A stretch of DNA of 53,980 nt, filler included, from Streblomastix strix (Eukaryota), in NCBI GenBank assembly GCA_008636045.1. It is 2 parts of 2 records of this genome, joined end to end, with 100 filler letters (N's around TTAATTAATTAA, not from the genome) between each part and the next. Parts side by side here need not be neighbours in the genome. Positions count along the whole stretch, not along the records: positions 1 to 26,951 come from SNRW01000153.1; positions 27,052 to 53,980 come from SNRW01000154.1. The stretch is one strand, 5' to 3'. Shown piece after piece: positions 22,100 through 51,400 of this stretch. The notes beneath the pieces were generated by a model, which saw only the letters and a list, made by a program, of their open reading frames with translations, was not told where the DNA came from and did no database searches. Positions within the stretch are counted from its first letter, which is position 1; each line of letters starts with the position of its first letter. The translations under genes were made by a program, and so were the position numbers.

Positions 22100-22722
22100 A
22101 TGGGAATTGACCTCATCGCAGGAGGCCGCTCGAAAAAGACAGTAAAAAGGACGACAAAGAGCACAGATCCATATCATCAGCTGCTTCACAAGGTATTTAT
22201 ACAATTAATATGTTATGCACTATCATTATTTTCATATATTATATTATTTATATTCAGCTATACCATCATTTGGCTCACAGAACAGGAAACAAATTCAACA
22301 AAGCGATTGCACACAGATTAACACAGAGCAAGAGCGTCCGTGCACCATTATCGCTCAGTAAAGTCTCAAGATTCCTTGCAGGTCGTGAGGACAAAGTAGC
22401 TGTGGTAGTAGCAACCGTAACTAACGATGTCCGTCTCCTAGATGTCCCAAAACTGAAAGTAGCAGCTCTGAGATTCACCGAAACAGCTCGTGCCAGGATC
22501 AATAAAGCAGGAGGTCAGTGCCTGAATCTTGATGAAATCGCAGCTAAGTTCCCAACAGGAAAAGGTACAGTGCTCCTTCGTGGACCAAAGAGCCATCGTA
22601 CAGCAAACAAATACTTTGGTACTCCTCCAGGTGTTATTCACTCTCACACTAGACCTCGCACTCTTACACGCCGCAGTGAGAGGAATCGTGGGTTCAAAGG
22701 ACAGTTGCGCCACAAGCACTGA
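22100..22722 (+). CDS. RPL18: 60S ribosomal protein L18 (eL18); exons 22100-22192 and 22258-22722
   Basis: MGIDLIAGGRSKKTVKRTTKSTDPYHQLLHK|LYHHLAHRTGNKFNKAIAHRL...VVATVTNDVRLLDVPKLKVAALRFTETARARINKAGG...PTGKGTVLLRGPK; GT-AG intron 22193-22257; ends TGA. Confidence 0.97.
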
Positions 22723-23318
22723 AACACTTCGCATTATGACCATGTTCGTGAGGTTGAAATAAAACGAAATCCGATTGTTCTTAATAATCCTATAAAATTT
22801 CATGGTTTTAGTAAAAAAAAATTATTTAATCATAAAAAATCGAAATTTTAATCGGTATGTTACAACTCACTCATCTTATTTTATTGAAAATCATAATAAA
22901 GACAAAAATTACTATAATTTTACTTAATATAAATAAATTAATTATCCTCCAACCCAACGCTAAAAAGAGTAAATAATTATCTCAAGAAGTACTCAAAAAG
23001 TTAGTACATATATATAAACAATAACTCTATATAAAATTATTGAAAAAAAGGCAAAGGGAGTAAACTCATCGCTGAAAGAAATAAATGAATAAACAATGAT
23101 TCAAAAATTATGATGGAATATGAGATGAAGTAATATTTATATGAGAAGTAAAACATGCGTTATAAAGGGTAAGAAAGGAACACTAGTAAAATAATAATGA
23201 AATGCTCAGAAAAAGTTGCCCAAATTTACAAAATAAGACAATTAAATAAACCTTAGATCATTTATGAGGACCTTAACGATATGAAAGCACTCATCAGTAA
23301 TCTGACAATGCGTAATCC

Positions 23319-24526
23319 TCACTAAAAGCTCTTCTTAGACTTAACACTCATCAATACAGCCAGTCCAGCTGATTTGAACTGGTGCTTCCCTTTGTGGTCA
23401 TTCATCTTCTCAACAGCTGAGCTCAACTTAATCTGAGAAAGAGTCTCTGTGAACCAGGGGTGCTTAAGAGCTTGTTCTGCTGAGAGACGTTGTTTTGGAT
23501 CAACAAGAAGGAGTCTGCTTATGAGATCTTTGGCACTGACGCTTATGGAGTTCCAGAAAGGCGAAATGAATGCAAATTAACCTTTCTTTATTTTTCGGAA
23601 AAGTGTTGCATTGTTTTCATCAAAGAATGGAGGGAATCCACATAATAGAACATACATCATTACTCCAAGTGACCACAGATCAACCTACAAATATTAATAA
23701 TAAAGCATCTTATGTAAATATAATAGATGCATACTTCTGGTCCATATCCTTTGTTTTCAAGGACTTCAGGAGCTACATAATGCGGAGATCCACAACATGT
23801 TTAGAACATCACATCTTCATCCATCACCTTACTCATTCCAAAGTCACTGATCTTCACAGCTGCTATTGAATTCTTTGATTCATACAATACATTCTCAGGC
23901 TTTAAAACAATAAATATAAATAAATTAGATGATATATTTATAAAAATTAAATATTACCTTCAAATCCCTGTGAGCAATACCACGTTGATGTAAGTATTTG
24001 ATAGAACCAAATAGTGATCTCATGATAAGTGAAGCATCTCTCTCAGAATAAGAACCAAGTGCTGCAATTCTCTCAAAAAGCTCTCCTGGAAGCAATAAAT
24101 GAAATAAAGTATCATTATTATATAAAAAGTATCTCAATACCACCAGTCATCAATTCCATAATAAGACAAAGGTGATCATCTGTCTCATAGACTTCATATA
24201 AATGAACGATGTGGGGCTATTTTTATGAATTAAGAGAGAAAAAGATAAAATAAAGTAAGAATAAAAATATTCTAACTGTAAATTATCCATACATGATTTA
24301 GATTCTTCATAATATTTATTTCATTGAAAAGAGCTCCAAGTTGCCGAGGGTCTTTAATTACGCGTATTTTATCAATAAACTTAATAGCTACTAATTATCC
24401 AGTAGCTATGCATTTTGCTTTTCGAACCTTAGCAAAGTTGCCTTCTCCAAGCTCTTCCAATATCTAATAAACTTCAGTTAGGTTAGAAGGAACACCGTCA
24501 ATGAGTTTTGGCAGTTGTTTTGACAT
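23319..24526 (-). CDS. CAMK-group (CaMKI-like) Ser/Thr kinase, 5 exons
   Basis: [87 protein letters not shown]; ends TAG TGA at 23319. Confidence 0.93.
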
Positions 24527-47793: not shown

Positions 47794-48428
47794 AATCTAA
47801 AAAAAGCAAACAATTTTTAAAAAAATGGCTTAATTTCCAATAATTTTAAAAAAATTTGCAAAAAATTAGAGATTTCAATAAACCGAAAAAAACTATTTGA
47901 AAATCATGTTATTTAAATTATAGTTCAAATTATTCCATTTTAAAAAATATCCAGGTTGATATTTGCATCAGCAATTTATATATCTTCAATATTTCATTAA
48001 TAAAATGCAGAAATTTGTAAAATTATTATAAAAATAAAAATGAGACATTAATACCTTATCAAATATTGTTTTTATAAAAAATTATTGATATAATTTTATA
48101 AAGTATGGATTTGTACAAAAACGTTTGCATTATAAAACTACTGAAAGAAAAATATCTAGTTTTTAATGGATTAGCCTCCGCGCTGAATCTGCGTATTCAA
48201 AATATTAACAATCATGTAAAATAAATCGAAATATGTATTATTTTGCAGTTAATATTAAATAAATCGCTCATTCAAACAAATTTCTACTATTATGGTCCTA
48301 AAATATGGACTCGCTGTTTCTAGAGCTATCATTTATTTATATAAACATTAAAATTGTTTAAATATGAACATTGTGGATATAAAAATAAAAAAATTAACTA
48401 TAAGTAACATTAAATTGGAAAATTGGCT

Positions 48429-51400
48429 TCAATTAAGAAATCCTGTACAATTTGGTGCACCACAGTGGCATGGCACTCGTGTTTCTTCTGGTTCCAGACT
48501 GAATTTATAATCATACGTGATTTCTTCTCCTGTCTTAATAGCACGTTTGGAGAAAATCACAATTTTCTTCAGACCGTTATCATTTACAATCTCAGCAAAG
48601 CAATTAGGTTCGCAGCTATGATTAATATAGCGAGCTAAATTCCCTTTCTTAGTCGCATCAATAAGACAAAGACGATCAATTCCAAACATGTAGTTTGAAG
48701 GATTTCCTTATCGTTTGTACAACTCTTCACGGAATTATCCCACAGAATGGCGTATAATCTCACCAATATATTCAATAACAACATCTCCAGGAGATATTGG
48801 CTCCATTGTAAACAAACCCCAGTCATGAATTCTTGATCGATCAAATCTGAGTCTCTTTGGACGTCCTCTTTCTCTCCAAATAACAGAAAGAACATTTTAT
48901 CTGTCTCCAAGATCTGATAAAGCAGAGAGTCTCAATTCTGATGTAGTTGTTGGATCAACACGAGCTGATGCCAATGTTTCTGCTAGATTATTAGACAGTC
49001 CTTCAAGTCTGGCTTTGTTTCTCATTGTTTCTATTTATTCTCTGGGATCTTATTATTAATTCTATGTCTGTTATATGTTGGATGTAGCTTCAGCATGGTC
49101 ATTAGCAGCAGATACTGCAGCAACAAATGCAGGTGATAGAGCATTGGCATCAATAGCAGTTGGTGATATATGACTGGATGATATCATTGTAAAAGGAGAG
49201 AAAGTTATAACAGATCCTGATGATGATGAAGATGATGAAAAAGATTAATGTAAATGATATCCTCTTACATATGATGGTTTTGATTAACTTGCTTAAATGA
49301 GAGATGAAGGATGATTCATAACATAACTACGTGGAATAGAGTCTACCCTCGCAATTGAATGTAATGGAGGAAGAGGAATATGAGTCAATTCACTTAATTA
49401 ATCTTTAAGCATATCAAATCTGCTAAATTCAGGAATATATGGTGAGCATTTATGTGACATTAAACGAAGATGTTTGACTGTTTAAATTAAATATTTATTA
49501 TTAAGAGATGAAATATTATCAATGCTTGAATCTGCATTTTCAGTTAATAGCTCCTAATTGTCAATTAAATATATTATTGGTTTAATTTATTATTAATTAT
49601 TTTAAGAAGGAGTTGTGAATGATTAAATATTTTAATTGGATTAAGATGATTATTATGATGGAGTTTATTATGTTAACTTTGAAGGATGCATTTCCGTTAT
49701 CTCAAAATGATCATAATCAATTGCCATATTTTAATGATCTGATTTAATGTCATTAACTGAATCCTTCTAAATAGTTACATCCTGTTTTTATTTTTCATTC
49801 TCAATTGTTTATTTATGAAAATCTAGAATCATTTATAATTAATTCTTCTTAATTTCATCTCCAAAGAAATCTCCAAATGTTTAAGAAATGTTTTATTTAT
49901 TAATTTAATTGTTTAAAGTTGGTTATTATATTACATTTGATGGATTCATATTTAATTCAATATTGAGATTTTAGTAAATAGAGTGAAATGTGGTCTTCCT
50001 TTATTTATCATATATTCCACACTAATTGAATCCATCATTATCTTCTTCTTTCAAATTATTATTAATCTAATCTTTATTCATATAATTATTATCTTCATAT
50101 TAATTATAATCTAATTTTCTTTCATCCTTTTCAAATCCAAATCCAAAATTAATGTATCCGTTATTCTTTTTCTTTTACTATTATAATAATTATTATAATT
50201 GATATTAATCATTTTAATTATTTATATTAATTTCACTTTATTATTAAAATTCAAATATACTTTTATCCATTTATTACTAATTATTGGTATTTTCTCCTTC
50301 AATTATAACAATCGGTTTACTTTATGTTAATTTATTAATTAGTTCTCTTCGTTTCATAATAATCTCTTCATCAAGAAAATCAATGAATCTACCCAAAGGA
50401 AGTGAGAAATAATCAAATATATCTTCTTCTTCTCCTTCTTCTAATTCATTCTCAATTTATATCTAAGAAGAAGGTAATGTCTATTGTTATGATTCTTATG
50501 GTATATCTTAGATCTCATGTGAAACTGTTAACTTTTATTATTCTTTATCTTATTCTATGTTATTTGATTGAAGATTCAATTCTATCTTATTGTGGTCTGT
50601 ATCAATTACATTTTCTATAACCTAATCTTAATTTTAATCCAATTCTTAAATAGTTTATTCTTTTAATGTATTATTGTTGCTTATATTATCATTCAAAACA
50701 TCATCATCTTTTATCATTTAAACTTCTTTCTCTAACTCTTATTATATATCTTTTTCTTTCTCTTCCGCTTTGCTTTAATTCTATTCACTATTTTCTAATA
50801 TAATTTCTTATTCATTTAATTTCTCTTATTCCTTCTAATCCTTATTCTGATCTATTTAATCTTTTTCCATTAATTTAATTTATTATTTATTTTATTATGA
50901 TTATTATTTCTTTCTCTCATTTTCACGTTGGATCAAAAATCTCTACATTAGCAAAGTGAAGTGGGGAAGAGTAGCAAAAGGATGACCTCCAAGTTATTTG
51001 AACAGTTATCTGAATCTCATTTACAGTTTGTGAGGAAGAAGTGATTGACCAATTGGACGTTACTATTACTATTACTAATACTGGTTAGATTACTTTCTTT
51101 CTCTTTCATTTAGTTGTTGCTATTATTCATACTCTTGTTGTGTTTAGTACACAAGAGGTTATTAAAGCATCAACTATTCTACTGCAATGTTCTATCTATG
51201 CTGTCTTCGAGCTCTGATTCCAGATCTGCTCATTTCTTAATTCAATTCAGAGTCCTTCTATTTATCCATTCCATTTATTCTCTCGTATTCTCTTTCTATT
51301 TTCTTCTCCTTCTTTTTCTCTCTTTCAATTCTTTTATTTATTTCTTCTTATTGTTATTTCATTTCAAGACTTTTAATATTACTTCCTTTATCTATTTAAT

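Follow-up and report, generated by a model that had tools for sequence, protein, structure and literature searches.

Sense use of UGA in nuclear genes is known from ciliates that also read UAA and UAG as glutamine (Gln). In Parduczia, Loxodes and Plagiopyla, UAR is Gln and UGA is either tryptophan (Trp) or stop, while in Condylostoma all three codons are ambiguous (PMC4967479, bioRxiv 10.1101/2023.10.09.561518). Condylostoma has a sense UGA usage of 0.042% and Parduczia one of 0.120%, the median 3' untranslated region (UTR) of heterotrich ciliates is 21-23 nt, and proximity to the poly(A) tail is a known candidate cue for the choice between stop and sense (PMC4967479). A 2023 critique deals with ambiguous nuclear codes in ciliates, Blastocrithidia and Amoebophrya, in which UGA is Trp. 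Chen et al. 2023 described a different assignment, with TAA, TAG and TGA as Gln, Gln and arginine (Arg; together Q/Q/R), for seven spirotrich ciliates that include Uronychia, Stylonychia, Sterkiella, Tetmemena, Paraurostyla and Uroleptopsis; the evidence consisted of alignment and read mapping, no tRNA for Arg is identified in the accessible text, and Streblomastix appears in it only within the reference list (PMC10089648). The present analysis concerns the use of TGA in a stretch of 53,980 nt (the window, at 26% GC and with spliceosomal introns), composed of two records of the Streblomastix strix assembly GCA_008636045.1 joined by filler. Streblomastix strix is a termite-gut protist, an oxymonad within the metamonads. 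The genes of the window make it fairly probable that this organism reads UGA as Arg within genes and as a terminator close to the mRNA end, a double use that would likely leave it without a dedicated stop codon.

The published code of S. strix is NCBI table 6 (TAR as Gln, TGA as stop), and was called from tubulins and from expressed sequence tags of highly expressed genes (PMC13002328, PMC1501061, PMC5304391, PMC10120064). Internal TGA goes unmentioned in the accessible text of those papers, with neither UGA nor TGA appearing in that of PMC13002328 and no TGA in that of PMC1501061, and the literature searched (listings and passages, mostly of open-access articles) contained no mention of sense UGA in S. 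strix and none of a Q/Q/R code in oxymonads. The window agrees with the published code in that UAA and UAG encode Gln in its genes. Reading both codons as Gln opens long frames for DNA polymerase alpha (Pol alpha, 41117-44899) and for a SET1-like protein (48432-53930); the Pol alpha exon, with 1261 codons including 62 TAR, matches DNA_pol_B with an E-value of 6e-82, and the SET1-like frame matches the SET domain with an E-value of 1e-24. The last exon of RPL18 matches a Streblomastix strix protein at 100% identity, and the second named match is Monocercomonoides exilis at 61%. Four sequencing runs, X1 to X4, each cover parts of the stretch, and were compared over 29400-48700 and 29550-38400. 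X1 agrees with 34474-44946 at every letter and is a possible source of the stretch, with X4 deriving from the same sample, while X2 comes from a different sample and a different study, with contig depths of 2.2-5.5. An X3 contig skips three GT-AG introns, and X3 therefore behaves as RNA; TAR codons are unedited in it.

The clearest case of internal TGA is a cytosolic carboxypeptidase of the CCP5/AGBL5 type (CCP), encoded on the plus strand at 33944..39958 in a single frame of 2004 codons that matches Peptidase_M14 across its TGAs (E-value of 1e-12). This frame contains three internal TGAs, as opposed to 17-103 in the other five frames, a contrast beyond chance, and no frameshift was found in its 2004 codons (6 kb). 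The first TGA (35804..35806, codon 621, followed by gaa) aligns with Arg. The second (36266..36268, codon 775, followed by agt) falls within the catalytic domain, where a variable insertion in the alignment makes its residue uninformative. The third (38252..38254, codon 1437, followed by aat) lies in the low-complexity tail, where no homologue and no second sample covers the site; the frame beyond it stays open for 567 codons. The first TGA precedes every catalytic motif (codons 708, 749, 766, 940 and 1020), and the second precedes two of them. With internal TGAs ahead of catalytic motifs in a gene that is under selection, the table 6 expectation that TGA acts solely as a stop in functional genes failed here. 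The gene is transcribed, as indicated by an X3 contig at 33906-35570, and a CAA/TAA swap between its alleles at 34040 fits the reading of TAA as Gln. An exact look-up of three CCP pieces gave no match, and further S. strix loci were not found in viral contigs, prokaryote genomes or metagenome contigs. The one metagenome match (L001) is an unrelated locus of 41% GC at 45% identity, which at 1742-2287 encodes an unrelated carboxypeptidase with TAA/TAG in frame, read as Gln (table 6), probably in a ciliate-type code.

A fourth internal TGA (16772..16774, followed by tct) was located in a multi-exon PPP-family phosphatase on the plus strand (16157..21592, its 3' end inferred from the frame), orthologous to oxymonad and Paratrimastix proteins. 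It stands seven codons before GDIHG, the first metal-binding motif. Alignment of the later exons to the Monocercomonoides protein, at 33-90%, shows no other stop within an exon; the sole other stop in the alignments is intronic and placed right after an exon end. Arg occupies the site in six of the seven best matches, among them the Monocercomonoides cluster, three Blattamonas proteins and Paratrimastix; the seventh has Gln and an eighth match has Ser. The phosphatases in the PDB proved too remote to settle which residue belongs there. An intron of this gene carries a long (ATT)n microsatellite at 20944-21096.

At CCP site 35804, 114 of 119 aligned CCP5 homologues carry Arg, the others being Lys (2), Cys, Ser and His (1 each), as counted among the 120 matches listed out of 269. 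Arg is thus aligned at both informative internal TGA sites (35804 and 16772). TGA arises from 2.5% of single changes, with 49 of the 444 such routes beginning at Arg codons. The probability that both sites face Arg under random single-base nonsense change is 0.011-0.034, depending on mutation weights. Reading UGA as Trp was rejected, as Trp was found in none of the 119 homologues. Hidden introns were likewise rejected at both sites: the alignments there have no gaps, so that no intron can hide either TGA, and no candidate in-frame GT-AG intron spans 35804. A 45-nt in-frame GT-AG stretch does span 36266 and is a possible intron, but it is unlike the real ones; the T content of such in-frame candidates over TGAs other than 35804 and 16772 is 0.27-0.38, as opposed to 0.48-0.53 in four reference introns.

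The internal TGAs of CCP recur in the second study and the gene that carries them shows the mark of selection. X2 contigs span 35804 (35699-35868) and 36266 (36142-36320) with the TGA unchanged, each extending more than 31 letters to either side of it. They differ from the window at two letters (35819, 35837) and at one (36256), respectively; all three differences are synonymous, and two of them are AGA/CGA swaps. Over the complete X2 table and the six X3 rows among those listed, synonymous changes account for 15 of 22 CCP differences, where changes of the same kinds would give 6.2 by expectation (P = 1e-4). Past the first TGA the listed differences include 5 synonymous out of 8, where 1.5 would be expected on the same basis (P = 0.008). 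The retention of the TGAs in a second study, together with allele differences that are mostly synonymous, argues against an artefact or a dead gene. In-frame UGA therefore occurs in CCP, a single gene under purifying selection, and the original prediction that TGA serves within genes as well as at their ends was borne out.

All eight gene ends examined are TGA, three of them inferred from the frame, and none is TAA or TAG. The five terminal TGAs named in the original prediction are all present, with the following bases it had given: RPL18 (22720-22722, plus strand, followed by aac), SUMO (27940-27942, plus, att, after GG-C), Pol alpha (46028-46030, plus, tgt), the SET1-like gene (48431-48429, minus, agc, after GFLN) and a CaMK-like kinase (23321-23319, minus, gga). 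The RPL18 end agrees to within about 3 residues with that of two oxymonad-like relatives, and it is identical in a second S. strix copy. The SUMO, Pol alpha, SET1 and CaMK ends are presumed from translation and general family knowledge rather than from alignment. The names CaMK and SUMO, together with that of a TAF8-like gene described below, are likewise our assumption from translation, with no family match behind them. The CaMK-like frame ends in TAG TGA (23319-23324, minus), and this TAG, now Gln, could be an old stop. The ends placed by the frame are those of CCP (39956, plus) and of the phosphatase (21590, plus), and a probable one (46182..46184, minus) in an unnamed spliced gene. Beyond the eight terminal TGAs, the next in-frame TGA follows after 6, 9, 17, 37, 54, 96, >100 and >100 codons; a leak at the terminal TGA of RPL18 would lengthen the protein by 54 residues. 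The unnamed gene (46132-47796, minus) is expressed, with four exons and three introns seen in the X3 contig, and its product is hydrophobic and has no Pfam match. The X3 contig runs on to 46132, at least 50 nt beyond the TGA at 46184, with no poly(A) end, its 3' stretch falling within the 151 nt that separate the end of this gene from the convergent end of Pol alpha; RNA contigs cannot fix transcript ends.

It had also been claimed that local context does not separate the two uses of TGA, and this held, at low power, for the 8 terminal and 7 internal sites compared; with 15 sites in total, the comparison shows overlap rather than absence of a signal. The base after TGA (+4) is A, T and G at 5, 2 and 1 of the terminal sites and at 5, 1 and 1 of the internal ones, and C at none. 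No difference between terminal and internal sites was seen downstream in folding z-score (over 80 nt), in T content or in GC content (P = 0.28, 0.32 and 0.95). A cis element marking only the internal TGAs was sought through motifs, folding and Rfam, again at low power, and none was found: the words shared around internal sites are only AT-rich background, and the window has no Rfam match, although a divergent SECIS could be missed. No tRNA genes were found in the window. Programmed read-through was rejected on context, as none of the 7 internal sites has C at +4 and the mean folding z-score is 0.33, and selenocysteine was rejected because the aligned residue is Arg and not Cys, with no Rfam match and no downstream hairpin. 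The internal following triplets listed in the original prediction were confirmed in part: six of the eight could be placed (tct, gaa, agt, aat, att, aaa), but no convincing coding frame was found for aac and ttt.

The three remaining internal sites belong to a low-complexity ORF chain on the minus strand (29618..32398), with in-frame TGAs at 32221 (followed by aat), 31705 (att) and 30898 (aaa). The chain has 3 TGAs in 927 codons, whereas each of the five alternative frames has 13-52, again a contrast beyond chance. It matches no family and has no clear start, and its coding status is uncertain. Counting it, internal TGA use comes to 7 in 6853 codons, or about 0.1%, a value near those of Condylostoma and Parduczia, three of the seven deriving from this uncertain chain. 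An acidic ORF from ATG (33012-33650, plus), with no family match, contains TGA 33237 after 75 codons followed by 137 open codons, and this is possibly another internal TGA. Transposase TGAs were excluded from the counts as decay, the control being a decayed DDE-1 transposase (13149..14291, minus) with four TGAs, of which two are alignable, one to Cys/Ser and one to Arg. A public gene model, P0395 (13206-14126, minus), bypasses three of these TGAs by means of two introns.

If UGA has both functions, each former stop would take the meaning of its twin with C at the first position: UAA that of CAA, UAG that of CAG and UGA that of CGA. The reader of UGA would most likely be a tRNA-Arg, either with a UCG anticodon and G-U pairing at codon position 1 or with a derived UCA anticodon, and its competitor at UGA would be an eRF1 of weakened activity. 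The decay of CpG within gene bodies would supply CGA-to-TGA changes, which would then be tolerated. Because CCP needs two or three serial read-through events and a leak in RPL18 would add its extra residues, the choice between stop and sense would have to depend on position. Given the code, proximity to the poly(A) tail, or to a 3' end bound by poly(A)-binding protein (PABP), is the likeliest positional cue, and we lean slightly towards it; the four homology-backed internal TGAs lie 1.7-4.8 kb from their gene ends, in the direction of the original prediction, but with n = 4 the test has no power. The low usage of UGA and its absence from Pol alpha and SET1 suggest that decoding it is still costly.

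Several observations weigh against this dual reading. Only two sites are informative as to the residue, and at one of them (16772) the column is variable over all 150 matches (Q46 S24 R22 E14 A10 K9 P8), so that the Arg signal of the phosphatase derives from its nearest relatives. The contigs that bridge the two CCP sites are shallow, at depths of 2.6 and 2.9. X2 shows an additional TAA-to-TGA change at 36435, a Gln site, in a single contig of depth 2.2 and 31 nt from the contig end; this change was counted as non-synonymous and would be Gln-to-Arg under the proposed code. Pol alpha (1534 codons) and SET1 (1806) together have no internal TGA in 3340 codons (Fisher's exact test, P = 0.05 per codon and 0.02 among Arg codons), which fits a costly codon barred from essential genes but also gene-specific decay. 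The minus-strand chain carries no signal of selection, with 1 of 4 X2 differences synonymous, and a 228-nt duplication takes in its TGA at 31705. The single 3' UTR seen in part measures 50 nt or more. Two of the three alignable internal TGAs in decayed DDE transposases face Arg, the third facing Cys/Ser, and the genes are CpG-poor, with observed/expected (o/e) ratios of 0.37-0.49 as opposed to 1.04 in the transposon-rich first 15.8 kb. Arg alignment alone is therefore no proof of sense use.

A rival account is that the TGA-bearing genes are dead or dying, with CpG decay turning CGA into TGA, nonsense alleles becoming fixed and UGA remaining the ordinary stop of table 6. The CpG depletion of the genes, the Arg-facing TGAs of the transposases, the TGA-free Pol alpha and SET1 and the extra X2 change at 36435 all speak for this explanation, and CCP5 and the phosphatase could be dispensable. 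We nevertheless regard it as unlikely, because the differences between alleles with the same TGAs are mostly synonymous, also past the TGA, because the three TGAs come with not one frameshift in 6 kb, because the fraction of single changes that yield TGA is small and few of those routes start from Arg codons, and because the phosphatase exons are intact past their TGA. A less probable account has UGA leaky everywhere, with near-cognate tRNAs (Arg, Trp, Cys) decoding it at a modest fixed rate that low-demand genes tolerate and with no positional switch. Yeast does insert Trp, Cys and Arg at UGA (PMC4150775), two long essential genes lack TGA and no context difference was detected, but such leakage would have to succeed two or three times in series in CCP, most terminal TGAs have no nearby backup stop and the leaky +4 C is found at 0/7 internal sites.

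Site-specific U-to-C editing of the mRNA, which would convert internal UGA into CGA and leave the code as table 6, has the merit of yielding exactly Arg and of needing no positional rule, and the X3 RNA contigs span none of the internal TGAs. We consider it very improbable: in the X3 contig, which covers 1668 nt of CCP, none of the 6 differing letters listed falls at a TAA or TAG codon, both T-to-C differences are also present in the DNA of X2, and no cis motif shared by the internal sites was found. Least credible of all, and hardly to be entertained, is that errors of amplification or assembly, unseen introns or selenocysteine account for the internal TGAs. The window does have assembly oddities (a 228-nt duplicate and a 102-nt inverted piece at the N gap), the 45-nt in-frame GT-AG stretch spans 36266, and oxymonads are able to make selenocysteine (PMC10703272); against this, the same TGAs were recovered by a second study at two sites, the alignments are ungapped at both anchored sites, where the residue is not Cys, and no Rfam match in the window or hairpin downstream accompanies them.

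The window has several further features. The 228-nt direct duplicate (97.8% identity) comprises 28908-29135 and 31686-31910, and the 102-nt inverted duplicate, at 26508-26609 and 26951-26850, ends at the N gap; both are probably amplification or assembly artefacts. A spliced gene at 32480-32860 (plus), with no Pfam match, has a 5' exon that may overlap the start of the minus-strand ORF chain; with its histone-fold end and C-terminal proline motif, it presumably resembles TAF8. The region 1-15800 is transposon-rich and gene-poor, and within 1-15900 the scan for read-through was limited to selected frames. It contains part of a MULE transposase (4287-4769), DDE-1 in two decayed copies (about 6365-6850 and 13149-14291), and fragments that resemble TmcB (about 2900-3300, apparently frameshifted) and a phosphatase (774-1007). 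The contrast in CpG content between genes and this transposon-rich part is the reverse of the usual pattern of transposon methylation.

Within the literature found, UGA as Arg is so far known from one computational ciliate study. If the dual reading of UGA is correct, an independent oxymonad case would make Q/Q/R a recurring code and suggest another tRNA route, the model of poly(A) proximity could be tested outside ciliates, and the public S. strix annotation, in which TGA is a stop, would split or mis-splice some genes; models such as P0395 may hide internal TGAs elsewhere in that annotation. As to what would be new, we put forward only tentatively that S. strix has the first nuclear code in Metamonada with all 64 codons used as sense, with the stops read as their C-starting twins, a positional UGA switch operating with 3' UTRs of at least 50 nt, beyond what the ciliate model assumes, and an undescribed tRNA-Arg route.

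Set against known systems, S. strix would share with the ciliates of ambiguous code the lack of a dedicated stop, the rarity of UGA as sense and flanking bases that do not separate the two uses, and with Parduczia the use of UGA as the only terminator (PMC4967479, bioRxiv 10.1101/2023.10.09.561518). The internal residue in Parduczia and Condylostoma is Trp, however, whereas in S. strix it is Arg, so that the route through a tRNA-Trp with a 4-bp stem cannot apply and S. strix would not be a member of the Parduczia-type ambiguous codes, even though it would work likewise. The 3' UTR glimpsed here, of at least 50 nt, is longer than the 21-23 nt of heterotrichs (PMC4967479), but still short. In yeast, Arg can enter at UGA by near-cognate read-through, in which Trp dominates (82%), and Gln enters at UAA and UAG by G-U pairing at codon position 1 (PMC4150775); those UGA events are rare and depend on the 3' context, in contrast to the S. 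strix sites, which lie deep inside catalytic domains. The closest likeness is to the spirotrich Q/Q/R code, which has TAA and TAG as Gln, TGA that faces Arg internally and also ends genes, low usage and AT-rich genes (PMC10089648). The spirotrich case comprises ciliates with up to 987 TGAs in one genome, as opposed to two informative sites in a metamonad, but judged from sequence the S. strix pattern matches that code, in a different eukaryotic supergroup.

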